This document shows positions 13,837 to 57,721 of a DNA stretch of 64,000 nt, piece by piece. The notes beneath the pieces were generated by a model. That model was not told the DNA's origin. It saw nothing but the letters and a program-made list of their open reading frames with translations, and ran no database searches. Within the stretch, counting starts at the first letter, position 1. Every line of letters begins with the position of its first letter. The stretch lies in assembly GCA_000165425.1 (NCBI GenBank), contig CT868207.1:682001-746000 (forward strand). The letters run 5' to 3'. This DNA comes from Paramecium tetraurelia (lineage: Eukaryota). The position numbers and the translations under genes were made by a program.

Positions 13837-16800
13837 TCAGGATTCACTTTGGCCATTGAATTCGTCTTCATCATTATTTTAATCTTCAATTTATAAAGCT
13901 CTTCTAAAAGGGAAAAAAATAGTTTCCTTGTCATCTAAGCATCTTTTTACGAACTTCTCCAAAGCGTTACAATCATTAGGATGTTTATTCTTAATATAAA
14001 TAATATAGTAGAGCATATGGTAGACACTATGTTCTAAATATATATGATAATGCCAGCCTTTTGATCCACTAAAAATAAAGAGGATATAATACTTTGTATC
14101 AATATCATTCTTATCAATACTACAAACAAAACATTTGCCTTCAATTTCTTTCACTAAGGCTTATCTCTCATCTCTCAATTCACCAAATGTATCTAAAATA
14201 ATACCAAAGATTATTTAAATGAACAAAATGTTGAATATTATGAAAAATGAGAAGTCAAAAAAGTATCTTCCCCAATATAATGTAGGATCTTCATAAGGTT
14301 CAGGATATGTTTTCATTGAATCACCTAAACCACTACGAAGACCAAAATTGATTGTGGATGTAACGGCTAAAATAAATGTTTATCCATAAACACCATCTTC
14401 ATCATTGAACATCCAGTCAAAGTCTGAAAATGCAATTATGGCATAAATTAGTAATCCAATAAACCCAAGAAAAGAGAATATGGCTAGATTTCTTCCATTC
14501 GATGTAATTGATTTTATAATATTCTAAAGATCCTCTGACCTCTTAATAATATCTAACAACAGTACTGCATAGATGTATGGATTAAAAAATGCATAAACTG
14601 TTAGTCCAAACATCCAAATCTATAATATTAAATTATGTTTACATTGTAAAAATTATCAAAGTCAAAAAATATAACAAGAATAAGCTTTTTGAAAGTGCTT
14701 TCGCTGACTTTTTATCCTTAAAATTCCTATTCAAAGTATCCAACAATACTATAATATTTCATTGTCAACCAAGCTATTGAAAATCCAGCTTCCTTTTTTA
14801 AGATCTGAACTCTTTTAGCATTAGTTTCACCTCTATTATATGTAATTGATATTGGATATCTTTCTATAGCACAGAAAAATACAATAATTAGATTTAATAC
14901 TAATTAAATAATGGTGATAATCTAAATTATTAGATAATGATTACATTATTAAGATAACTTACAAAGTTCTGTCCAGGTACTTTTGTTTCTGACTCAGGAG
15001 CTTCTTAACTGGATCCTAATTTACTATTGACAACTATGTCATGCATAAAGATCAAGAGAATTACTATAACCAAACAGAGTATGAAAGATACATCTTTTAA
15101 CAATCTCCAATAGACTGCTCCAAAATGCATTATAAAGCTATTGTTAATTTATTAAGAATGTCTCATTTAAACCTGATAAAAGTCAGCTTAATCAATTAAT
15201 CCTTACATTCTATCTTCATCTGTATCCCTTTTGATCTCATAAATTATATGCTATTTAATATTGGGAGTAACAAAATTGCAAATAAAGGGTTTTTAAAAGA
15301 AAACCTTTTGAAGTTCAGATTATTCATTTTGAATTTCAATTCTACCAGTAAATTATCTATAGAATTTAAAAAACTATTGTTTTCTAGTAAACTTAAAATT
15401 TTCATCATTTGAGATATCTTCAAAAATTTGTTTAAATTCATTTTGTTAGGGTTATCTTAATTGGTTACTTAATAGAGCACTTTGTTCTTCTTTATCATGA
15501 TTTTAATTTTTAACGAAGATTGGTACTACCTTTTAAGAAGAGGCAGTATTTTTTCTTTGTAAATCATCGTATAAGGGATCACTTAAATCAATCAAATCAT
15601 CCTATTCATCTTAATCTTCATCGAATCTAAAAATTTCTAATTAGGAATCTTTAGGAAAATGCTCCGATAATGTTAGACAAATAATAAAAATATTAAAACC
15701 TGTTTGCATTAGTAGGTTATCTTCATCAGTTCTTAACCCAAAATGGCATAGGTTATTGGAACAGTATTAATGCTGTCCAATTTTTGATTCATCACAAATA
15801 TTATCTAGGATGATATTTCTCTATTTAGGTTTAATACGATCTTGATATATGGATCTCGAGATTCTCATCAGAATTGTAATGTTCACAGTTTCGAGTATAA
15901 ATTTCAAACATTGTTTGTCATGTTTTCCTTGAGTTATCAACAATAATAATTTAATAAATGATTGAAGTGTCTAATATGAGTTGTATTTTCTTTCTTGAAA
16001 ATCAAGCTAATTTTTATTTAAATTTATAATAAGATCTTCTTCCTGATTTTATGATTTTAATAAATTTTCTTTAATTATATTTCTATTCTCTTCCTACAAT
16101 TATTTGAATGATAACAAATCTTCTTTCTATAAAATTTAGTTTAATAATGTAAATAATCTCGTATTTTTGCATAACTCTTTTTTATTTTCTTCAAATCCAG
16201 TAGAGAATTCAACTAAACTCTCCAAAGCTTGTCTGTAGATTTCTTACAGCTTATAAAATACACTCCATCCTTTTTCCAATAAATCTGCTAATAAACTGGC
16301 TACTTCATTAACAATATTAATATTGGCTTAGTATGAATCATCATCGTATTAACGAACTAAAAACTTTTAGAAATCTACATTGACATTTTCACACAACGCC
16401 TACAATAATTTTAGGACTTTCAAACACAGTATTTTATATTCAGTGTTATTACCTTCGCATAATTCTAGTTCTAATATCCTGGAATTAATATCAGTCAAGA
16501 AAAATCCTCGGAGAAACACAAAGAATTTTTATTTAATTACCTAATCTTATTTAAGTATATTATAGAACTTTTTCTAGACATAGTCGTTTCCATAATCCAA
16601 TAAATAAATTAACAATTATAATGCCTCGATTTTATGTTAATCATCATCAGAATCGTTCAGTATCTCTAATGCTAATATGTCCAAATCACTATCCACCATA
16701 GCATTTTAATATTTTATGAATATTTATTATTTCAACCTTATTTATTCTTTAGATTTTTCATCTTTTGCTTCTGTAAGTGAATCAATGTCATCTTGTGTGG

Positions 16801-19800
16801 GTCTTTTCAACAACAAGAATATTTTACATAATTTTATTAAATAGATTTCTCTGTTTAAAAATATGCCTTAACATTTTTCTAAAAATTCTTAAACATTGTC
16901 CTCGTTCAATATGTTTGTATTTTATTTCTCTAAAGTCTTGATTAGTAATTCTATTTAAATATCATCTGATATTAAATCTTCATTACCTTCTAATTAACCA
17001 CCAAGCTTTTTGTATTGTTTTCCAATTAGTTTGTGACTAGCTATTCCAAACTCTTATTTAAGATTCTCTAAGCCTTCTTATTATCTTAAATACGCTTGCA
17101 CTTACTGGTTTATTCCGATCTAAATAGTTTTAATCTCAAATAATTCCCTCATAGCTTATTTAAATAACTCCCAATCACTTATGACTCTATTTCTATTATT
17201 TACTTATTCTAATCTCTTAATTTATTCTATATTCACTTTAAAGATTTCATCAATATCGCTCTATTAGATGTATGTCTTATAAATGTTGCAAGTATCCAAT
17301 ATCTTCTATTATCTCTCTGATTCATTTGCCTTATTTTCGATGTACTCATTAAATTAATTAATATTCACTTTATATCTAATTAGATACACTTTAAAGTTTC
17401 TCCTAAAGAGATTTTCTATTCTCTAAACATTGTCTTATTCTTACAACTTTTTTTCTCCTGATTGATCCTCTTTCAAAGTATCAATCTTATCAAAAACTAA
17501 TTTAGTATTCTTGTCCTTTTGGAATCCTATTTTAAAATTCTGACCAAACTTAGTAATTTTTCTTTATGGAATGATTTCTTCGATTGAAGTTATCAATTCT
17601 CTATAATCATCCAAATCCAAATCTTCCTTTTTTACTCTAAAATCCCTTTCTAAAACATTAAAAATCTCCTTTATTTTTTAGACATTCTATTTAATGATTG
17701 CAAATTCATCAGACAAACTAGAATTCTCTGGATTTTCTAGATCAGTTCTATCCTTCATCTCATCGTATGTATAAACTAAAAAATGAATTATCCCATTTTT
17801 CCTTAAATATTTCCAGTATTCAGTTTAATCCCTTAAGATTCCTTAATCTTAAACAAATTTTGAATCAAATGAAAGCTTATTCTCGAAATAAGTCAGCTTC
17901 TATCTTTAAATTGAATCTCTCAAATCTCTTTAAATAACCTTCATATTTCTATCTTGATTAGCTAATTTAGACAGCCCTTCCAAATATTTACACACTTATT
18001 TCTAATCTAACTCTGGGATTATTACCCTGGACAGTATATCTCTAACTTCATCACTCTCTACAGTATCATTAACAAACTACCCTTCTCTTACTTAATTGAT
18101 ATATAATTCAAATAAGCATTATAAATATGCTCTCTTCACAATATATTCACCTTTAGGATTTAATAAAATGGTCTTTAATTATTCATACAGCAATATTCTT
18201 TGCAGCTCCTATATTCCTATTCTATAAAACTGACAACATTCAGTTAACAATGTTATTAATTCTGAGTGCAACTTCATTCTATGATAAAGCAAAGGGTCTT
18301 TCACATTCTCCTCCTCAGTAATCAATTCTGGAATCAGTATATCCTGATAATAGTTCACTGGGTCTAAGACTATTCTCAGAAAAGTATTCTTTAAGATCTT
18401 CGATATAATTAAATGTTTATTCAAGGGCATCTATTTTGCAGGTTTTTCATAGGATTTTGTCATGGATCTTAAAATCTTAAAATATTAAATCAAAGAGTAA
18501 TAAGCCACAGCATTTTCATGATTCCTTCTTTTTATAAATTTAATTTCTTCCTCTTCATCTCTTGTACTATAGACCTTAAGGTAAAACTCTTGACTTTATG
18601 TCAACTGATTTCCTAATTTGTAAATTCTTTCGAATATTTAGTTTATTAAATTATCATGTTGATTTTCTGGGATAGAAGATATAATTTTGATTGCTAATTT
18701 TGTTACCTTGATTGGAATATAGAACTTATCATCTGCTTATGGCTAAGACATCTAAATTACATCAAGAATCTTTTGTAAATACTCATTATTAGCTAAAATT
18801 GAAATATTAGTATCATTATCTATTATGAAATATTCCAGAAATAGAACGATTCTTTTATAGAAAAAAACTATCTCTTTTGAAGATATAATTGTTTCTGGAT
18901 CTACTAAAAATTTCAAAAATATTAGATGCACATTTGCATTCCTTACTATATTTTAAAAGGACTTTAAATACTATAAATCTTAAGAATTTGGTTTAAAAAA
19001 CATTTCAAATTATTCAATGATTCTATTTGAATATCCTTTTAATATATCAAAGGACGTAGCCCTTTTTTAATTTAAATTATCATCTTTCTAACTTTGAATA
19101 AATTTTAATGCTCTTTTTGATAATTGTATAGCTTCCTTAGGACTTATCATTTAAACACTGTTTGAATTTCCATTAATAATTGAAAAGTATCTCAATTCTT
19201 ATTAATTGTCAATGATTTCAACTTAACTGATTTCCTATATTGAATATTAAGGTGCATGAAAACTTTTAATTATTCTCTATAATAATTCCTCATTTAGTTT
19301 AGTTCTTTTCCCTGATGTCAATAAGCAAGTAAATAATAATCCACAAATGCTGTTGCCATCAGGTTCTTTGAAAACACTATAAATGGATTTGGATGAAATA
19401 GTCTTTGGTTTTTTAACTTACACTTCTTGATTTATCACTTCGTCAAATCCAAACTAATCCAAATCTTTGACACTTGGAGAACTTGGATTTGATTCATTCT
19501 ATTGGGAAGAACTGAATAGGAACTCTAGAATCTATAGATTTAATTTTAACTGTTCAAAGATTTTCAGAATCGATAAAGCTTCCAAATAGATTTGGGTTTT
19601 AATGATATCATCGTTACAATATTAATAAGTCCATATTAATAAATATAGAATCCAATTTCTTTAAAATTACATATATATCTTAGTTGATTGCTCCATTCTT
19701 TTGTAATCCTTATCTAGACCTCTGTATTTTGACTACTTTTTCTGATATAGTTATTCAGCAGAAGGTAAGAATGTAGAAACCCATATGTTATCATCAACTG

Positions 19801-22800
19801 ACTCTCTTAATTTATTCAAATTTGAAACAAATGAATGATTTTCTGAAAATCTGTGTATTCTCATATCAGGAATCTATTATAAAATTAAGGCTACAAAGAT
19901 ATTAGGAAGTATTGAGAATATTTTCTAATTTTCATCCAATTGATTATAGCCTAAGTTTATGCTATTCTTGATAATTGTCAATAGTCCTAAGAAATAATGC
20001 AATTGCAAATAAGCAAGACGAGAGTAATCGAATTTTGGCTTATTTAGTTGGTTAGATTTTTTGGTTTAAAAGATGTCATAACTTGCCTCTATCAGTAAAT
20101 GTTCTGGATATTCCTCCTTAGTAAACATTTCTAAATAATACAAACGAATATCATTGATATGAGGTCTAGATAACATTTTAGCAGCATATAGTTTAAGTTA
20201 CTAATGTTCTGCTTTGGTTTCTTTCTGATGAAGAAAACTCTAATAATCGTCACTACGTTTTAAGGCTTTTGAGGCATTATTCTCATAAAAGTATAGTCCT
20301 GAGGGATTCTATATGTTGAATTAATCAATGTCATCACTTAGGTAACATTTAATAGTATTTGTTTAAGTATTGTTATAAAAGGGATCATAATTTTAGGATA
20401 TCTTGATTAAAGGATCAATGTCTAAAAATAAATTACAGAATAAGTCAATTAAAGTTTTTTCGAATCTAAGTTCAGATTTAACATTCTATTAACGCTTTAG
20501 ACATATTTCCAAGAACTTTTGATTCAAAAAGCAATTTTTCATTAAACATTTGATATTTTTTTAATTTCTTCCTTTACACAATGAAGAATATAAACCCATT
20601 ACATTCATTAAATAATTTTCATATTTCTAGAATATTGGAACCACTAATTTAGCATCTTCCTATTTTACTAATTAATTTTCTTTTAGTGTTTCAATTGTAA
20701 AGAAATCAATCACCACATCAATTAAACTGGGACTATGACTTAAAAATCTCTTAGCAATTCTTACCTATTTATCAATAAACTTTAAGTAAAGTTAGCAAAA
20801 CATCTAATTATTTTAACCAAACTAATTGACATATTGCATATACATTCCTTTATCCCTTTTTGGATAAAATTAAACTATTGGATACAAATTGTTGTTATCT
20901 TCTTATATGTCTAAGGATACTAAGACATTATGAAACGGAGATTATTATTCTTATTAATTTTTTGTCCCAAATAATAATCTTCTGCAAGCATTCTAACATA
21001 ATATATTTGGGTTCTCATAAGGATCTATCATTATCAAACTCAAGATTTCTATATAGAGAGTTTAATCTTCAATATTATCTTCAGATATATTTTCCAATTG
21101 ATTCACCCACTTTTTAATATTTTCTTTAGATTCACTCATATCAGTATATCTTACGCTTTCCTTAATGAGATTTGAGATATGTTTTCGTTAATGTTTTAAT
21201 TATTGCAAAAGGAAATCTAAAATACTTTCCTTATTCATTTTTAATGTCAAAACATAATTACTTGTATCCTGATTTTTTTAAACACATAAGCTCAGAACAT
21301 CATATATTTCTTAGATACAATTCAATTTTTAAGATGACGAAACAATAGGGTCAAGTTTTGATTTTGCAATCTTCTAAGGAGTCTTGTCCAAGACTTACGA
21401 ATTGTTATTAATCAAACTCCCGTAGATCATAAAATTGCATAGTCGTTAAATAGCAAAGAGCAAATTAATAATATCATTATCCATTAAAGTTTTTTATTTG
21501 AATTACTGTTATTCGTTTATTTGAGCTTGTCCTTCATTAGTTAAATACAACTTTAGGTTTTCCAAAGTTTAAAATAATTATTAAATTTCATCATACAATC
21601 TCTTTTGATTGTTAAAAGCCTCATAATAATCATAAGTTCTAATATCTTCCAACCCTTAGGTTGATGTCTTAACTATACCCCAATCCTGTAGAAATATATA
21701 GAATTAGATTAAGTATTCTTATAAAGAATTAATTCTAAAGGCAGTCTTAGCTTACTCTTGAGTTGCTAGCTTTAGTAAAAAAGTGGCTCTTTCCATATTT
21801 TACTTTTAACTCTTCCTTTAAACTGTCACTCTATCATCTAAACAAACGATGACCGAATTTTCTTAAGTAACATAACTATCAATAGAAATATTCATAAAAG
21901 ATTATAATTTGTAAGCTTCGCTGAACAAGATTTGATCGTCTGAGTTCTTTTTAGATCTTAAATGAAATTGACATTCTTATCTTAATCCATCATAAGTTAA
22001 ACTTGCATTGTGATTAGCAATTTCCAGGAATAATCCTGTACAAACATGTCTGATTAAGAAAACACTTTCGTAATTTGGTCTTGAGAACATCAGACTATTG
22101 ACGTGTTGAATTTACCATAAATTATTTAAGTTATTTTCTGCATTTTCTGATGTATCCACACATAGCTTATACATATAATTAATTTTTTCATTTTTCACTT
22201 ATTCTACATTAAAATAGAATTAATCTTTTGAATAGCTGATATTTGTATCGTAATTATTGATAAAGACCTCTGTTTAATCAAGTCCTTCAGTAATTCTAAC
22301 TTATCTTTGAATCGAGAGATATCCACCCAAATATCTATTTTTGATTGTGACTACATCTCCACTAAGAAGGGCTTTTTATTTCAAAGATTGCTCCTTCAAT
22401 TCTTATTCCGTTTTAGAATCAATGTAGTTTGCAATTTTCAAAGGAAATCCTATTTAAGAACAATTAACTTCTAACCCATCCTTCTTATCGTATTTTTGAC
22501 TTGGCTTCTGTATATTCATAAACCATTTATTCTAACTTGAATTTTGAATTATTATTTGATCTCCGTATAAGATAGGTTCTCCTGGGTTTTTAACCTGATT
22601 CATTGATAAAATTCTAAAATTTGAATTTACATTTGGAATTTCTTCTAACGATAATTCTCTGCAACAATTTTCCTTAGCTAAGTTTGCACTATTAAATGAT
22701 AGAATGCAAGAAGAATAGATGTGCTTAAGTTGGATTTCTTAACCATAGACAATATTGGATCCGTAGGCAAGATCATAAAAACGCTTGTTTTCTATAATTT

Positions 22801-23321
22801 CTTCTTTAGCCTTATCTTCAAGTTCTTTTAACCTTCTTTCATATTCTGATTAGCAAAGTTCTAAATTAATTGCTTCATTTATCGCCTATTCTCTAATATC
22901 ATCTATTGATTTCGAACGCTCTTGTTCTAGAAAGTTTTAATAATGATATTTTTTGCCTGTGATAACTTAAAATAGACTCTTTTAAAATGATAAACTGCCC
23001 ACCTTTTATTGTAAACATTTTTTTGATTGACTAATAATTTGCTGATTTTTTCCCAATATCTATATACATTCCAATTTATTGCTTGCGATGCCATCACCTG
23101 AAATAACACCTTTATAGTCGTCGATCAAATAAGACTTGAAATACACTATGTCTCCTACTTTCAAATTGAAGTTTCGCCTTTAATAAAAACAACAATTACT
23201 TTGGAGGTTTTGCGGTTTCCTGATTTTGAGTTTAGGGATTGTAAATATGTTATTACGATACAAGATTATCAGCTCCTAATTATGATTGTCTTTTTTAAAC
23301 TGGAATAGGAGGAAGTTCCAT
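13837..23321 (-). CDS. Inositol 1,4,5-trisphosphate receptor-type Ca2+ release channel (Paramecium CRC family), ~3100 aa
   Basis: N-terminal beta-trefoil/MIR-like region (IRHVCTGLFL), long helical RIH-like region, TM block, IIFGIILDTFGELRD and CFVC...HIYLEH Zn motif. Confidence 0.93.
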
Positions 23322-47972: not shown

Positions 47973-48689
47973 TCATTGATAAGAATATTAATTATAAAGA
48001 TATTCATTAATCAATTTATAAGCATCCCAATTACGCTTGAGTAATGATAATTAATCTTATGAGATAGCTATTTATCTTTTTGATGATGTTTTGGCAAATT
48101 GTTGAATTTATAATATATTATTAATTTAATTCGTTCCCCTTTAGATTTTAGGCTTTACAATAAGTTCTGTTTTTTATACAACAGGATCAGACCCCTTCCT
48201 TTTTCCCCTCTTTTCAGGCAATAACTACTCACTCACATCTGAGGTCGTTGATTGATTCTCTTTTTTCGAATAATAAGTGGATGAAGTTTCAGCAGTTGAC
48301 CATTTTAATAGTTTCTTCTTTCTCTAAGGCAAGATCCCTATTTCTTCACTCATAATTTCGTCATTTTCATTGGAAACATCTTCACTATCATATTATTGTT
48401 CTGATTTTGTAGCCTTAAATTCCTCCTCCTACGCTTAATATTTGTCTCTCTCATATTGAGTTTTAAAAACATAAACTTCAGCCTTTAGATTAAGTTTTTC
48501 ACATATCAAATAATGATTGCCAATCTTACAGTCAAACTTGCATTGCTCTTCAAATTTTAATGGTTTGCTCTTCTATTATATAAATGTAAAAGTCAATCCT
48601 TCCTCTTATTTATTTTTAATAATTAGTTTATCAGTTTTTAAAAGATATAACCTACAAGGAGTCAGCTCCTGATTGGAAATGGTGATCAT
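47973..48689 (-). CDS. Hypothetical 238 aa protein
   Basis: Intronless frame, beta-rich N-terminus; divergent from the multi-macro gene. Confidence 0.6.
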
Positions 48690-48713
48690 AAATTAATTAA
48701 TTATAAATATAAA

Positions 48714-51700
48714 ATGCTTTCATTAATTTAAGGAGACATAATTCAATAAAAAGCAGATGCAATTGCATTACCTTCTGATATAGCATTATTAAAAGCTCCT
48801 GGTTTGAAATAATTACATCAAAATGGTTAATAATAATACAATGACTCGATAACAAACCAAAAACCCTTTAGTTAAATTTAATAGACATCTGTCATTACAT
48901 TACCCCTTTAGAATAATTAATTTAAATATATCATTTATTGTATTGTTCCAAAATCTGACTTGAATAATTAAGAGTTGTAATTATCTCTTTTATTAGAGTT
49001 ACTATTTGAAAATATGTAATAATAATAAGTCTAATAGAAACTAGTTTTGACGAAATTACTTTTTTAAAATTATAATCTATCCTAATACCAGTGCTTGGTT
49101 GTGATAACGCGGATTTTACTATATAAGAATTTTTGATGGCTTTTTAATCAATTTATGCAAAATAAAGAGATAATTTGAAAGATGTTAATTTGATATTTGT
49201 TTCCTAAAGCTAATAAGAATATGAACCTGTGAGAAGATTTTTATCAATTAAAACCCCAAACATAGCAAATCCTAATTTTGATAGTATTTATAAAACAGTC
49301 GCTCAGGGATGTTAAACGTCTCTAACTGAAACATACAATCAATTTCATTAATAGAACATTAAAAAAAATGTTGAAAATCAGAAACCAGAAGTATAAGAAG
49401 GAAGTGAAATTGCTTAATATAGAAGGGATTACAATTCTAAAAAATAGAACTAATAAAACTAGGGTAATTATTAAGCAGAGAATTCTCATAATTAAGAAAC
49501 TTTAAACTAAAAAATAAGGTAACATAATTAAAATCCAAATGAATTTTAATAAGTTGGTACATTCAATTAGTCAAATCAATCAATTATACTAAAATCTTCT
49601 CCTGTTATTTAGTCGAATAAGAGCTTTTTTTCTCTCATTATTTACATAGATGAACTTATTTTAGAATAGAAAGATCTAATTAAATTTATGCTATAGGTAT
49701 GTTGTGATCTCAATCAACTTCATTATAAATTATTATAAGATTAAGAAATCCTAGAATAATCTAATTAAGTTTTTAATTACAAGCTTTCTTATAAATATTC
49801 GATGATCCCTAAGGAATTGTTTCCTTTTTGTCCGCCTGAGATGTTAGAGAATTAATAGATATCTGAAACTAATGATTCATATTCGCTAGGTATTATATTT
49901 AAAAGAGTTCTTGAAATAATAAACTATAAATCAAATTAAGAAGATTGTAAATAAATACATTATAATTATAGAATAAAATATGATTTAAATATAGACATTA
50001 TTAGATAAACTAATTTCTCAAACAACCTAAAGACCATTAATAGATGATATATTTAGTTTTTTATTATCCCTTCAATTAAATGAGTAATTTATTGAGAAAT
50101 GGACTTAAGATTAAAAGAATATTAATTATTTTTATAGAAAACGTGGTATTTGGTAGAAGATAAAAGACTTTAAAAATTAAATTATGATGAAAGCCTCCTT
50201 TTTGAACAATTAAGGTTCTGGCAATCAGCAATATTCTCTTATATAAATTGATAATAAACCATAGGATTAGATTTAATTACTAAATCATCAAGAATCTACT
50301 TTATTCACTAAACTTTAATAAAATGAATTTAACTTAGATTGTGAATATGCATAAAGGGAATAAAATTATAAATTCTGTTAAATTGATTGTGTAGTTATTT
50401 CAGTAGATAAATACTAATTTAAATAAAACTTACCTAGCTTTATAAAATTTGATTCAAAATTAGACTATGTACTTGATAAAATCATAACTTTGGCTTAAAA
50501 TGAGAAAGAACATTATTTATAATCAATAAGACAATATGTACCAATATTTGGTTGCAATCTTGTACTTTTGGTATTTTGTCCAAATCAAGATTAGACAAAT
50601 GGAAGATAGAATTAATTAGTCAATTGCTTAAGGGATATGTAAATTATTTATTCTTTAATTAAGACTTTTGTATAATTTAAAATATTAGAAAATTACAACT
50701 TTTTGTCTATGTCTAGATGATATTTGTAAACAATTAAGTGCAAATCAAAATGATTTATCAATGGATTTATTAGCCAAAGCATTTGATGAAGCTTGTGCTA
50801 AGATTCCTGATCCAGTAATTTGGAATGAAATATAATTTAATAACTAGAAGTGGATTGTTGTTAAAAAAAGTAAATGAAAAAAGTAACATCTAGCTCCTAT
50901 GAAAATTAAGATACTTGAACAATCAATAATTATCCATAATTAAGATATTACTCAAATCAAAGGAGTTGATGCTATCGTAAACGTAGCTGACCCTAATCTT
51001 AAAAATCGAGGGGGGATTTGTGGAGCTGTTTTTAGAGCTGCAGGTGAAAATCTATTAGAAGAGGAAATTAACATGTTGTTTAACAAACTTGGGAGAAAAT
51101 AACCAGAGACTTCAGAAGTCATTGTTACTAAAAGTTACCGCCTGGGATAAGAAAATGGGCCAAAATACATAATTCATGCTGTTGGTCCAAAATATAATCC
51201 ATAAGACCCTTAAAAGTCAAAAGAATAACTAAATACATGCATTGTTAACATGTATATTTTTAGAATTTAATTCTATTATTAGATTACAAAAATGTCAAGA
51301 ATATAAAATAACATCAGTAGCAATACCTCCTATTTCAGAAAAGAATTTTGATTTTCCGAAATAGATTTGTGCTTAAATATTTCATGCAGCGCTTCTGTAA
51401 TTTCAATTTTAAAATCCTATGTCTATACATATAATTGATGTGAGAGACAAAGTAGTTGATATATTTAAGATTATTTTTAAAGGTGAAAAATTAAGAGAAA
51501 CTATTCATTCAAAATTAGATTTTGCTCCTCCAACAGATTGTTTAGTTTGCCCTATAAATATATAAAATTATAATTCTGAAGCTCTTAAAAGGATAATAGA
51601 GTTAGCTGGTCCTTCATTCTAAAATGAATTGGAAGAATAAATAAAAACTAAATAAAATTAGAGCAATCTCAAAAATTGCTAAAGCTTTTTAATACAAGGC

Positions 51701-52065
51701 CATAAAATGAAATTCAATAACATCTATCAAGTTTTGTTGATTTCCAAACCATTAAATATAATTGATAAATAAACACTCTTATATTAAGTATATTTTTCAA
51801 TGTATTTATTATTGCCTAAATTAGATTGGTTGAGACTTTTCTGAAGAACAATATCACTTCAATTACAATATTGTTGTATAGTATTCTTCAATAATGTTTG
51901 ACTAGCTAGGAAGATTTTATAAAATATTGTGGAAAGCAAGCTATCAATATATTATTAAAAGCAATTCAGGATTTTGAAGAAAAATATCAGTAAGAATGTG
52001 GAAAAATTACCATATTATCAAATGCTGCATAATTTTGTTCCGAGTGTGAATTAATTTTTAAATGA
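48714..52065 (+). CDS. Multi-macrodomain protein with embedded pseudokinase (~1065 aa)
   Basis: LIQGDIIQQKADAI (Macro1); FCPPEML, DSYSLGIIF, RP kinase C-lobe; DAIVNVAD...GGICGAVFRAAG...YIIHAVGP (Macro3); six introns give a continuous frame. Confidence 0.8.
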
Positions 52066-52728
52066 ATTAATAATAAATTCAATTTTCTTAATACTTCTTG
52101 AAATAAAATTTCAATTAAATATACTTGATTATAATTAATGAGTGATAGCTCCTCCATTATTTAAATTTGATTCTCGAAATAAATTTGAATAAATAGTGAT
52201 TAAACACATATAATCATAAAATATACCTTTCATATATCTTTAATTTCATCTGGATCATTATTAGCATAGTAGGTGTCCCAAAAACCCAAAAGGCAGTAAT
52301 TTTTACAATTGAATACAAAAAGTTTACTTTAATATAGAGTCGTTTTCTATAACCGATTATTAAATGCGACATCCAAAATAATTTTTAAGGAAGCTAAAAA
52401 TTCTTTTTGAAAACTAACAATTTCAAAATATTGAATGCGATTTAAATAAATAAAAAATTATCCTAGAGTAACAAAAATGAAAATATGAATTTATAGGTTT
52501 AAATAGTTTTCAAATAAAAAAAATATTTTAAAAAAAATAATCACGAAACCAGACTCAAATCCTAATAATTAGTTGTAAGTATATTTAGAAGCAATAACTA
52601 AATAATAAATTACTTAATAAAACTTGAATTTTCAAGAAACTTCTTAATATTAAAAATATCTAACGAACTTTTTTGTTATTAGAGGATATGTTATTACTAT
52701 TTAATAATTAAATTTACAATTCGAGAGA

Positions 52729-53987
52729 ATGTGTATAACTTAATTGTATAATTTAGAATGCTCTTAAACTTAATCTAAAGCTTTATCTCATCCCTTTTCA
52801 ATCATTGAGACCTCAACAATCAGAGTAACTAAAAATGATATAGAAATTTAAGATGTATACTACAAATTTTTATATTATTTAGAACAACATTAATAAGATG
52901 TTGACTCTTAACATTGATGACATCAAATTTATGACATGGATAAAGCAGTATTATACAATTTTATAATATAGTGAAAATATCTATGAGGTTACCTTTCAAA
53001 AAAAACAAAACTTTAAAGAAGATAAATTCATTTTTGATATCTACCATGGGAAATTAGGATACTAAGCCCTTATTACTAGGATTGCATAACCCAATTTTGA
53101 CGATAACTATGAAAGGATTGAAACTATCAAACGAATATAAAATGGAGAGGTATTTAAAAAACAAATATTTCGAGATTATGAAATGTCGTAGACGAGAGAA
53201 TAATGAAATTTTTGTTGCAAAAGTTCAATAGAATAACCATTTTCTCATAGAAAGAGAGCTAAATATTAATTTACTTCTCGCTGTAAATCGACATGAAAAT
53301 GTAGCGAGTATGGTTGAATATTATTTTGAGGATGACAAAATAATACTTATTTATCCATATTTCTCAGGGGGCACCTTAAACTAACTTATTAGTGCTAATG
53401 CTAACAATATAAGCCAGCTCAAAGTAAAGTCAATCATGAAAAAAATTTTATCTGGGTTGAATCACATCCATAGTTTAGGCATCATACATAGAGATATAAA
53501 AATGGATAATATAATGTTAGAAGAAATTGATGATCATAAATGTGTTAAAATCATTGATTTTGGATTTTCAGCATTCAAAGATAATTTGAATTATTTATCT
53601 GAGAAATGTGGCACAATTGGGTACTTTCCTCCTGAGATTATTAATGGGTAGTTTTACAATGAGAAATGCGATATATATAGCTTAGCATAAGTTTTTCATA
53701 CACTTTTAACAGGAAATCCAATGTTTGATAGAAATATGAACAGATAATAAATTATTAGATTATCTAAAAATAATTTATTCAAGATTGATTATAGAAATAT
53801 CAAAGAGGTCAAGGCCTAATAACTATTATTTAAAATGCTTGACTTTTAAGAAAAAAGATATGATGTAAAACAATGTTTAGAGCATTCCTATTTTTCGAAA
53901 GCAGTAAATTTGGATTTAAAGTATTTATTTTTATTCATCTATAGAATTAAAAATGTAGAAACCTTGAAGTTCAAATCTCCTTTCTGA
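52729..53987 (+). CDS. CAMK-like Ser/Thr kinase with beta-rich (PH-like) N-terminus
   Basis: FVAK, HRDIKMDN, DFG, CGTIGYFPPE, DIYSL; no GxGxxG loop. Confidence 0.85.
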
Positions 53988-55263: not shown

Positions 55264-56848
55264 ATGAAAAATAAAGCCAACTCTTAAATCCCATTTCCAG
55301 TAGCCTATAATAAAATGAACCATTTCCAATTACCATTGCTAGGGAAGAAGAAAAGAAAGGCTCATACAAAAAACCCCTTCAAAACAAAAATCTATTACAT
55401 TCCTGATGACACTGTTATGAGAGTGAAATGTCTAGACGGGTTCTTGATGATCAACGTAACCAATAATGATAATCCTCATGAAATTATCAGAGCAAATTTA
55501 TCAAGTTTAGTATTGGCATAACTTATTTAGGACTCCGTATATAAAGCAGTAAACCTGAAGACTTTCAATATTTTCTAAATCTACAAGATTTGGATGTTTC
55601 TGAGAATTCATTATAATTGGAAGATTTAACCTCATTCCCAGCATTGAAAAATTTAAAGATTTGTGCTAACAACATTAGAAATATTGAAATCACTCACAAG
55701 AATACATTTGAGTCACTGTAACATCTTGATTTATCATTTAACTATTTAAATAAGGAAGCCATAAGTTCATTAAAAAATATTACAGAATTAAAGGAACTTT
55801 ATTTAGTTAGAAATGAATTACTTGAATTGCCAATCGATATGGCAGAGTTTACAAAGTTAGAATTGTTAGACATAAGTGATAATGCATTTTAATCCAATTA
55901 GACTGCTTCAGTCTTATGGGAAGTCTTAGGCTAGATACCTGAACTTAAAACACTTAATATAAGTAAGAATTTCTTAAGGGGAATTCATACTGAAAGGCTG
56001 GTTGTTGGATATTTCAATAAATTAGAAACTTTAGATTTCTCCTATAATATTGCTGAAAACTAACATAACTTAATATGTGCTCGTAATTTTACTAATCTCA
56101 AGAAAATTATTATTACTGGAAATCCATTTGGAATTACTAGAGATCATCAAGGTCTAGAAATGGAAATTCATGCTAGAACTGGAGGTATTTTAATAAATGA
56201 GGAGATTGAAAAATCCTATCTTAAGAAACCAAAGGTTAAGAGACCTCCCTGTAAATTTGAATAATTAAAGAGAGTTGAAAATGATATTCTAAAATTGCCA
56301 GTTATTGAATAATCTAAAGATGGACTCTTATTAAATAATGAGGAGGAATAATCTCAAATTGATGAGAACTAGGAGGACAATATGTTTGTAACTGAAAATT
56401 AACAAATTAAATAACAATAATAAAAATTATAATAACAATATTAATTATTAAGCAACAATTAAAAACCATCAACATATGAAGAATTCAAAAAATTAGCTTA
56501 AGAAATATTAGGTGATAGCAAAGAGTATGATTAAAATTAAAATTCATCTGGTAGACCAGTATTAGACTTAACAAAAGCATATCAACAACTTAAAAGTGTT
56601 ATCAATAAACCAGAAGTTGTGGATTATGAAGATTATAAAGAGCCTAATTATATGAAACCTACAGCAAGTATTCCAAGATATAAATATTAATGTATTAAAT
56701 ATCCTTATTTCTAATAGAAGTGGATGATCCTGAAGACGAAAGCATTTAAAAAAGAACTGATAATAACAACCTCAATTCAGAAGAGAATGAAGATTTCAAT
56801 CTTGAATTATTATAGCAAGGATAAAACTAAACACAAATTTAATAATGA
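55264..56848 (+). CDS. XRRA1-like leucine-rich repeat protein
   Basis: LDGFLM...LDVSENSL...FPALKNL...LDLSFNYL LRR series, ITGNPF. Confidence 0.75.
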
Positions 56849-57119
56849 CCAGATACCTGATTATTTGATATTTTTACAATTCAAATTATTAATTTCAATA
56901 TCATTTAATATTAAATAAGTAAGAGTTCAATGTGCTAATTCTTAAACAAAAATTATAAATAAATATCAATAGTTCTTTCATAATTAATACAATCTATTAG
57001 ACAAATGCACACATTAAATCTTTAAAAGTATTCAATTTTTAAAAACTTCTTATATAAAGATTGTAAGTCATCATATTATGTAAATTGTAATACAAAAAAA
57101 TTAATAACATATTTTTAAT

Positions 57120-57721
57120 ATGCTTAATTATCTTATAAGGATGTAGAGATTTTCTGTCAAGATAATAAAAGAGAATATTGTCAAATTAGTAGATGTTGAT
57201 GCTATTGTAAATGCGGCTAACTAAGAATTACTTCCTGGAGGTGGAGTTTGTGGTGCAATATTCTAAGCTGCGGGAAGAGAATTGGAGAGGGAATGCTAAT
57301 AATATATTTAGCAATATGGAATTGTACCCACATCTAAATTAGCTGTTACAAGTAGCTGTTAACTAAAAAAAAATAACATAAAATATATCATTCATGCAGT
57401 TGGTCCAAAATACTTTTAGTCTTCGAGTCCAGAAGATGAATTGCAAATCTGTGTAAACAATATGTATTTTGTTTCCATAAATATAAAACTAGTCTCAATT
57501 AATCATTCAATGTATTGGAATTGAAATCGGTTGCTATTCCAGCTATTTCAAGTGGAATTTACGGGTTTCCAAAAGGGTTGTGTGCATAGATATTTAAGCT
57601 TGTTATTGAAGAATATCAAAAGGATACATCAAATAAATAGGGGGAGATCATTTTATGCAATTTTGATTAAGAAACTACAACAATATTTCAAAAAGTATTC
57701 TAGTAATAAAACTCATTTTGA
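57120..57721 (+). CDS. Stand-alone MacroD-type macrodomain protein (putative ADP-ribosylhydrolase)
   Basis: DAIVNAANQELLPGGGVCGAIFQAAG, YIIHAVGP, VAIPAISSGIYGFP; one intron 57464-57492. Confidence 0.92.

Follow-up and report, generated by a model that had tools for sequence, protein, structure and literature searches.

A four-unit macro protein of Paramecium with a kinase C-lobe module and altered ADP-ribose loops, a candidate ligand-independent scaffold or decoy

The gene GSPATT00001526001 of Paramecium tetraurelia lies on the plus strand at positions 48714-52065 of the 64,000-nucleotide stretch of DNA analysed here (hereafter the window; contig CT868207.1, positions 682,001 to 746,000), and its 7 exons, separated by 6 introns, encode a protein in which four macro units appear to be joined to a module derived from the C-terminal lobe (C-lobe) of a protein kinase. 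By profile comparison the product is a member of the macro family via its units 1, 3 and 4 (Macro1, Macro3 and Macro4), and Macro2 is probably macro-derived as well. Because the glycines of ligand loop 2 are replaced in both Macro1 and Macro3, we consider it most likely that canonical ADP-ribose binding has been lost in this protein, and we propose with moderate confidence that it would serve as a ligand-independent scaffold or decoy.

Gene model and domain order

A query with exon 2 led to a P. tetraurelia protein of 1064 amino acids (aa), 100% identical (P0001; CAK75323 / XP_001442720 / GSPATT00001526001), which carries the automatic UniRef label "Macro domain-containing protein". The window is AT-rich (~25% G+C) and reads as ciliate DNA with genetic code 6, and once the six introns are removed the code-6 translation equals P0001 letter for letter over all 1064 aa. 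It runs from the ATG at 48714 through 1064 codons to a TGA stop at 52063-52065, with 99 TAA/TAG codons read as Gln. The introns measure 23-31 nucleotides (nt) and five of the six are not multiples of three; the sole intron that is divisible by three, intron 4 (24 nt), carries an in-frame TGA at 50875-50877. Both the sizes and the stop pattern agree with Paramecium introns as described in the available text of a review (PMC11334263). A candidate 19-nt GTA..TAG intron at 50670-50688 was dropped in favour of 50639-50663, which is the intron of the deposited model, is kept in the paralogs and is removed in RNA.

The six tiny introns and the use of code 6 had been proposed in an initial annotation made from the letters of this DNA, and the identity of the spliced product with P0001 bears this out. 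All of the motifs quoted there were also recovered: GDI at aa 7, FMLQVCCDLNQLH at 315, CPPEML at 363, DSYSLGII at 378, RP at 422, YFYRKRGIWQK at 454, NVAD at 722 and PPISEKNFDFP at 827. The absence of HRD and DFG holds over the whole protein, from which GxGxxG is missing too, and the order of domains is the one that the initial annotation gave, i.e. Macro1, Q/N linker, kinase C-lobe, spacer, Macro2, Macro3 and Macro4. In the feature list that follows, macro-profile columns refer to a profile of 317 macro domains cut from the non-family proteins of our exhaustive profile search and compared by hhalign.

48714..52065, plus strand: whole gene GSPATT00001526001, 7 exons, translation identical to P0001
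48714..49237, plus strand: Macro1, aa 1-165, a diverged macro domain that contains intron 1
49016..49044, plus strand: intron 1, 29 nt, phase 2, splitting Ile101 at macro-profile column 119
49238..49642, plus strand: Q/N-rich linker, aa 166-300, 31% Q+N, 25% identity between paralog groups
49643..50087, plus strand: kinase C-lobe-only (KIND-like) module, aa ~301-440, containing intron 2
49947..49971, plus strand: intron 2, 25 nt, phase 1, at Gln402, required for the frame
50088..50348, plus strand: spacer, aa 441-527, no family assignment, 28% identity between paralog groups
50349..50895, plus strand: Macro2, aa 528-693, very diverged and without ligand loops, intron 3 inside and intron 4 at its end
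50639..50663, plus strand: intron 3, 25 nt, GTA..AAG, phase 2, splitting Ile624 at macro-profile column 118
50870..50893, plus strand: intron 4, 24 nt, phase 1, at the Macro2/Macro3 border
50896..51457, plus strand: Macro3, aa 694-870, MacroD/AF1521-type with altered ligand loops, containing intron 5
51252..51282, plus strand: intron 5, 31 nt, phase 2, splitting Ile812 at macro-profile column 118
51458..52062, plus strand: Macro4, aa 871-1064, a diverged macro domain without ligand loops, containing intron 6
51802..51824, plus strand: intron 6, 23 nt, phase 2, splitting Ile985 at macro-profile column 118

Two paralog groups and their ligand loops

Across word-index, exhaustive profile and metagenome searches the full architecture was found only in species of the Paramecium aurelia complex. 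In the word-index searches five Paramecium proteins alone extended beyond the macro domain. Among the 150 matches listed by the exhaustive profile search (1.84 billion representatives) three were family members (P0001, P0015 and a 71-aa fragment, P0031), the remaining 147 having their best stretch at profile positions 671-946, which is the Macro3 region; two metagenome scans yielded no further family member. The family falls into two groups, of which group A comprises the window protein together with a P. octaurelia orthologue, 83% identical to it, and a P. pentaurelia orthologue at 68-69%, and group B, ~50% identical to the window protein, comprises P0004 of P. octaurelia, P0005 of P. pentaurelia, P0164 of P. 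primaurelia and P0015 of P. tetraurelia (GSPATT00002530001). P0004, P0005 and P0164 are full length and have the same domain order as the window protein from end to end. P0015 is annotated at 559 aa, starts inside the spacer and covers Macro2-Macro4, its orthologues being 1147-1153 aa long; it may be genuinely truncated, or its gene may have been split in annotation.

In our tree of the units, from which Macro2 was left out as unalignable and for which 45 of the 317 other macros were sampled, every unit analysed splits into A and B with a species-like order inside each group, and the A/B duplication is therefore older than the radiation of these species. The members of the P. aurelia complex are reported to have at least three whole-genome duplications in common (PMC4199370). 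For Macro3 the stem of group A measures 0.39, and the two subgroups of group B leave the base node at 0.17 and 0.07; against Pfam Macro, group A members reach 105-113 bits, and P0004 of group B reaches 153 bits. Within group A the macro units and the KIND-like module are 73-81% identical and the linker 56%. Between the groups Macro4 is the best conserved at 67%, followed by Macro2 at 58% and Macro1 at 44%.

The two groups differ at the residues expected to hold the ligand. Group B Macro3 reads NAAN, KGGGVCG and S[AS]GI[FY]GFP at the three sites, and group A Macro3 reads NV[AT]D, N[RQ]GGIC[GK] and S[EA][KR]N[FC]DFP; in the window protein these are NVAD for NAAN, NRGGICG for KGGGVCG and SEKNFDFP for SSGIFGFP, so that the altered hydrolase and phosphate-loop residues to which the initial annotation drew attention (NVAD and PPISEKNFDFP) are indeed present. 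When compared with the 317 macros, the first loop-2 glycine is a Gly in 91%, and the Lys found there in window Macro3 in 0.0% (the two orthologues of the window protein have Arg), and the second is a Gly in 64%, with the Asp of group A in 1.6%. Macro1 is altered in the same way. Its motif sites in the window protein read LPSD, APGL and CDNAD, and its loop 2 is GCDNADF, compared with GCGNAGF or GCGSAEY in group B; thus both loop-2 glycines are changed to Asp in group A, whereas the group B members compared have Gly at the first of these sites and P0004 has it at the second. No unit of the window protein has the ADP-ribose contact motifs in canonical form, which group B Macro3 does. Because the sister paralog keeps every canonical residue, the loop changes of group A are, on this alignment, derived.

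Previous work gives these positions their weight. The GIF motif of loop 2 is reported to contact both phosphates and the terminal ribose (PMC10802294), and a Gly-to-Glu change in the pocket of PARP14 macro2 to abolish binding of mono-ADP-ribose (PMC5127640). Loss of macro activity within tandem arrays is described as recurrent, often with one active unit remaining (PMC10221186), and macro folds unable to bind ADP-ribose can serve other roles (PMC2674928).

These same loops bear on a second reading, namely that the window protein is a working ADP-ribose reader in which Macro3, and perhaps Macro1, would bind ADP-ribose or a related nucleotide and the KIND-like module would couple the signal. Macro3 remains a strong Pfam Macro match, with D710, N722 and the loop-1 GG kept, its altered residues are conserved in 3 species, as would be expected of a selected pocket rather than a ruined one, and non-hydrolysing reader macros do exist, e.g. 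PARP14 macro2/macro3 (PMC5127640, PMC10221186). However, the residues at the two loop-2 glycines are rare or absent among the 317 macros, the same two glycines are lost in Macro1, a Gly-to-Glu change suffices to abolish binding in PARP14 macro2 (PMC5127640), and the changes are derived relative to a group B that keeps every canonical residue. On balance we find a working reader rather unlikely. In the 'reader or decoy' of the initial annotation it is the decoy, or a scaffold, that fits better, group A being without the loop-2 glycines that group B keeps, and the reader that fits less well.

The closest solved relatives of group B Macro3, as represented by P0015, are AF1521 (E 8.5e-26) and PARP14 macro1 (PDB chain 3vfq, E 3.2e-24), and P0015 also matches an Oceanobacillus MacroD-type domain and MacroD1/2. 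As a separate observation, a survey from 2014 counts P. tetraurelia among the species without a MacroD gene (PMC4245714); with group B Macro3 and a neighbouring macro gene both MacroD/AF1521-like by sequence, this loss is worth re-examining.

Macro homology and a shared intron position

Macro3 matches Pfam Macro (PF01661) over aa 721-844 with E 6.7e-31 and 107 bits (cut-off 22), with intron 5 dividing the match into one stretch on model positions 1-83 and another on 86-117. It reaches 100% against the 317-macro profile in hhalign, the program used also for the percentages of the other units below, and matches NCBIfam ADP-ribose-binding and hydrolase models with E down to 4.8e-25, all under their cut-offs. 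Macro1 and Macro4 were not among the best stretches given by Pfam. Against the 317-macro profile Macro1 reaches 99.2% (E 2.9e-19, 147 columns) and Macro4 95.0% (E 4e-8, 130 columns), and a search of the window's six-frame open reading frames (ORFs) with hmmsearch picks up Macro1 at E 7.8e-7, Macro3, and the N-terminal part of Macro4 at i-E 1.1e-4, so the initial annotation was right to read units 1 and 4 as macro domains.

Macro2 is different. It was missed by that same hmmsearch, and its profile matched PDB sequences at noise level alone (E>=0.25). Against the 317-macro profile it reaches 2.7% (E 0.017, 70 collinear columns) and against Macro4 20% (E 1.1e-3, 121 columns), rising with merged profiles to 10-15% at most; the observed score was reached by 0/60 column shuffles against macros, by 0/60 against Macro4 and by 1/60 against Macro1. 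In the ESM Atlas it falls with Macro clusters at 0.88 and 0.87, which we take as a lead only. Among the units themselves Macro1 and Macro3 pair at 96.7%, and pairs other than Macro1/Macro3 and Macro2/Macro4 give at most 3%. This pairing suggests that a two-unit block was duplicated. In the tree Macro1 and Macro4 join on long branches, where attraction is a risk, and we do not read the order of duplications from it.

The introns supply another line of evidence. Introns 1, 3, 5 and 6 lie one within each macro unit, all are in phase 2, and all split an Ile codon (Ile101, 624, 812 and 985), which map to macro-profile columns 119, 118, 118 and 118 through hhalign alignments that are blind to introns. 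The macro gene that lies downstream has an intron (57464-57492) that is likewise in phase 2, in an Ile codon and at column 118. For a single intron the chance of a random match, over 166 codons and three phases, is ~1 in 500. Because intron 3 shares column, phase and Ile with the introns of the other units, its position argues for homology of Macro2 as a macro-derived repeat, independently of the profiles, and we take the common position as evidence that the four units would descend from one intron-bearing macro unit. Thus the 'degenerate Macro2' of the initial annotation, weak by sequence, gains strong support from the shared intron position. As a point of method, the place and phase of an intron revealed a repeat unit that had escaped assignment by profiles.

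Macro2 and Macro4 are without any of the ADP-ribose contact motifs looked for (Asn-x-x-Asn, the Gly-rich loop 1 and the G-[IV]-[FY]-G of loop 2), and they are loop-less in group B as well. This raises the alternative of a re-purposed macro array, in which the loop-less units, and perhaps Macro3, would bind some other ligand such as a nucleic acid or metabolite, in the manner of coronavirus Mac2/Mac3 (SUD). Although Macro2 and Macro4 are better conserved than any other part of the protein despite lacking the loops, which would suit such a role, their net charge across the members is just -1 to +6 (near-neutral to mildly basic), no nucleic-acid-binding family was matched in the Pfam and NCBIfam comparisons, and nothing indicates a particular ligand, and we judge this alternative improbable.

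Several further Pfam matches were set aside. Mo-co_dimer at 50605-50868 (aa 632-690, at the end of Macro2) appeared in three of four family proteins with E 4.4e-4 to 0.14 and at best 20.7 bits against a cut-off of 22.7; being below the cut-off and out of context it was judged spurious. GCR1_C, PNMA, KARI_C and DUF2284 were below their cut-offs and incoherent with the context, and AsnA, CotH and RAI16-like were below cut-offs in one member each; all were judged spurious.

A kinase C-lobe without its N-lobe

The module between the linker and the spacer matches Pfam Pkinase (PF00069) at 18.7 bits on the whole protein and at 23.7 bits (E 3.6e-5) on the isolated stretch, with a cut-off of 31.7; three of the four members match, and the match covers model positions 163-226 of 263. 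Its profile gave 24 matches to PDB sequences at E<=10, of which 22 are named protein kinases, none significant singly (among them titin kinase at E 0.012, MYLK4, ZAK, STK17A/B and Aurora A), the other two being one entry without a molecule name and one glycine dehydrogenase. Against an alignment of two active kinases encoded in the window the module reached 73% in hhalign (E 3.1e-5, 112-140 collinear columns), a score approached by none of 100 column shuffles (maximum 19.6 versus 38.6 observed). These kinase alignments start around alphaD/alphaE and run to a QRP near the end. Along the way they take in an alphaE-like LIKFMLQVCCDLNQLH, HYK at the HRD site, FNY at the DFG site, PPE for APE, and DSYSLG for the DxWSxG of helix F. 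Upstream of the module, in the Q/N-rich linker, nothing aligns to an N-terminal lobe (N-lobe).

The module retains the residues that mark a eukaryotic kinase C-lobe. His327 and Asp378, which we take to be the kinase alphaE His and alphaF Asp, are invariant in the 5/5 full-length sequences aligned, as are Glu366 (of PPE) and Arg422. The latter two fit the salt bridge between the APE Glu and the helix-I Arg that is described as a mark of eukaryotic kinases (PMC3415841). HRD and DFG are lacking from the module in the full-length members, in 6/6 of which it is acidic (net charge -6 to -11). From these alignments the module is assigned as a kinase C-lobe alone, without N-lobe or catalytic motifs; of the pseudokinase proposed in the initial annotation the kinase origin is supported by hhalign, PDB matches and shuffles, whereas the term pseudokinase goes too far for a module that has the C-lobe only. 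The module resembles instead a KIND domain. The ESM Atlas places it with kinase clusters at 0.92 and with a KIND cluster at 0.90, and Pfam KIND (PF16474) had no match at E<=10 on four stretches of the family alignment; we do not claim membership of Pfam KIND, and because of this negative result the KIND-like module likely arose from a kinase independently of that family.

The spacer that follows contains YFYRKRGIWQK, which the initial annotation had called weakly WWE-like. We found no Pfam WWE match at either E<=1 or E<=10, aa 430-535 reached 0.1% in hhalign against the WWE+PARP end of eight PARP14 proteins, and the tryptophans of the stretch are not kept in the sister group, so this suggestion is unsupported. 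The absence of a PARP catalytic domain, on the other hand, stands: Pfam gave no match at E<=1, and a hidden Markov model made from the last 420 residues of the eight PARP14 proteins had zero matches among the six-frame ORFs of the window. Pfam on 52 selected of the 117 window ORFs of at least 170 aa also found no PARP, sirtuin or NUDIX gene.

Comparison with known systems

Antiviral macroPARPs and viral nsp3 are the best-known carriers of tandem macro arrays, in which the roles of binding, hydrolysing and structural units are debated. Like the macroPARPs PARP9/14/15, the window protein has tandem macros of which only some units would be active or ligand-binding, and its Macro3 aligns at 99.3% with positions 791-953 in an alignment of fish PARP14. 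In contrast to them it is without PARP catalytic, WWE, KH and RRM domains, it has a KIND-like module and four macros rather than two or three, and it is found in ciliates only. It thus reads like a macroPARP array without the PARP and WWE parts that has been joined to a KIND-like module, and on present alignments it is classed as neither a macroPARP, nor a bilobal pseudokinase, nor a member of Pfam KIND. By sequence, the solved domains most closely related to Macro3 are AF1521 and those of MacroD type, but they are single-domain hydrolases with intact loops, whereas window Macro3 is altered and sits in a four-unit array. Coronavirus nsp3 offers a parallel for the array: in Mac1-Mac2-Mac3 (SUD) one canonical unit likewise precedes macro folds that sequence comparison does not reveal, and its Mac2 and Mac3 are reported not to bind ADP-ribose and to have other roles (PMC2674928, PMC10221186). 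It differs in being viral and in lacking a kinase-derived module, and the likeness concerns the arrays of macro folds alone.

For the module the comparison is with the KIND proteins (SPIRE, PTPN13, FRMPD2 and very-KIND/KNDC1), in which, as far as the available text of the sources goes, a C-lobe without N-lobe or catalytic motifs is used for docking. KIND is described there as a kinase C-lobe that serves as an independent protein-interaction module, and the acidic KIND of SPIRE as binding a basic motif of formins (PMC3415841, PMC11231147). The Paramecium module is acidic as well, but it differs from KIND proteins in having no Pfam PF16474 match at E<=10, and SPIRE KIND is placed in holozoans and an amoebozoan, not in ciliates, in the parts of this literature at hand.

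In the literature we found no paper that describes the product of GSPATT00001526001 or its architecture, paper supplements lying outside this search, and among the matches listed no fusion of a macrodomain with a pseudokinase appeared by title and abstract. The initial annotation had not recognised the architecture from described proteins; this agrees with our literature search, although the protein itself had already been deposited and automatically named.

Transcripts

RNA evidence came from three raw-read stranded oligo-dT RNA-seq runs (X19-X21) and from a contig set, X3, that is of uncertain kind and has no RNA label on record, its lost introns suggesting RNA. A single X3 contig of 1694 nt spans 50248-52044 with introns 3, 4, 5 and 6 spliced out, and the joint of intron 5 is also crossed by two raw X19 reads, so that splicing is supported by RNA for four of the six introns. 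Intron 1 was bridged by no record in X3 or X19-X21. Between 49697 and 52044 the X3 contigs form an unbroken chain of overlaps, which is consistent with one uninterrupted transcript. In X19-X21 the first mates lie on the minus strand from 48711 to 51998, as expected of plus-strand RNA, and over the upstream neighbour they lie on the plus strand, which fits a minus-strand gene.

These data also speak to whether the gene is merely a decaying duplicate, a redundant copy left by a whole-genome duplication, without a separate function and in the course of turning into a pseudogene. The loss of canonical residues in two units, the low RNA depth with one contig that retains an intron, and the longer stem branch of group A could all be seen in this light. 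However, the 1064-codon frame is intact, its six introns are within Paramecium norms as far as the available review text gives them (PMC11334263), orthologues of similar length in 3 species share the derived motifs, identity within group A is far higher in the folded parts than in the linker (73-81% versus 56%), and four introns are correctly spliced in RNA. We therefore think decay very improbable.

Proposed role of the window paralog

Taken together, our comparisons lead us back to a ligand-independent scaffold or decoy, and to the following scheme. The protein would be a lineage-specific adaptor whose four macro-derived units arose by duplication of one intron-bearing unit, with the KIND-like docking module inserted after the first macro unit. 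In the ancestral form, which may still be seen in group B, Macro3 would bind, and perhaps remove, mono-ADP-ribose, Macro1 could be a second and weaker pocket, Macro2 and Macro4 would have a structural role or bind proteins, and a partner protein would be recruited by the acidic KIND-like module. The group A copy, an old, expressed paralog with an intact frame in which the phosphate-loop glycines of Macro1 and Macro3 are replaced, would then either act as a scaffold that needs no ligand or serve as a decoy, vying with group B for shared partners.

Several points weigh against this proposal. Group A Macro3 keeps D710, the adenine-side Asp of its DIT motif, together with N722, the first Asn, and two glycines of loop 1, and even in its altered form still scores 107 bits against Pfam Macro, so that residual or altered binding is possible; moreover, the step by which G-to-K/R and G-to-D are equated with the binding-null G-to-E is drawn from alignment, and the decoy role in particular is speculation. 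With respect to the architecture, the kinase signal of the module stays below the curated threshold throughout, Macro2 is a macro only by a weak profile signal plus its intron position, and the latter could also reflect parallel gain of introns at a similar N-I-L site. RNA coverage is low (29 reads in X19, 47 in X20 and 30 in X21 on 48300-52400), and the sole X3 contig over intron 2 (49697-50021, depth 4.9) keeps the intron. This could be ordinary retention, DNA in X3 or a real short isoform. Retention of intron 2 would stop translation after aa 434, leaving Macro1 and most of the KIND-like module.

A bolder version of the scaffold or decoy scheme, which we offer tentatively and consider on the unlikely side, is that the two paralogs form a hitherto undescribed two-gene ADP-ribose signalling module of the P. 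aurelia complex, in which a reader/eraser adaptor is antagonised or diversified by its 'blind' window paralog, both pockets of which would have closed. Here a single canonical pocket would read or erase mono-ADP-ribose and the independently evolved KIND-like C-lobe would dock a partner. If true, this would be the first macro-KIND fusion on record as far as we have found, and the window gene would be a natural pseudo-reader, analogous to a pseudoenzyme, with units that are traceable by a conserved intron.

The two paralogs amount to a natural experiment, being old copies with a shared scaffold of which one has intact pockets and the other has both altered, in an organism that is genetically tractable and in which RNA interference is usable. 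They would also represent reuse of a lone kinase C-lobe, lacking an N-lobe, beyond the KIND proteins of animals and amoebozoans, here fused to macro units. This hints at a so far uncharted connection of ADP-ribose signalling with a docking surface of the kinase-substrate type. The family is narrow (P. aurelia complex only) and the functional statements are conditional, and the wider impact is accordingly moderate.

Neighbouring genes in the window

A second macro gene lies 3.4-5 kb downstream at 55482-57721 on the plus strand. Its macro domain is canonical (NAAN, GGGVCG and SSGIYGFP); it matches Pfam Macro with E 1.1e-20, is 44-45% identical to Macro3 and has one intron of 29 nt (57464-57492). 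Leucine-rich repeats (LRR_8, E 1.5e-10) are found upstream in the same long ORF, and the repeat and macro parts may belong to one gene or to two.

The next gene downstream of GSPATT00001526001, at 52935-53987 on the plus strand, encodes a Ser/Thr kinase (Pfam Pkinase E 3e-47) with HRD and DFG present, which is apparently active. It has PPE for APE, as does the KIND-like module, but compared directly the two align over 34 columns at 55%, which gives no specific kinship.

On the minus strand an open frame of 2851 codons at 14768-23320 carries RIH_assoc (E 1.3e-15) and Ins145_P3_rec (E 8.3e-11), domains of IP3 receptors and ryanodine receptors, and is followed by an Ion_trans piece at 13840-14655; the two are probably parts of one large Ca2+-release channel gene.

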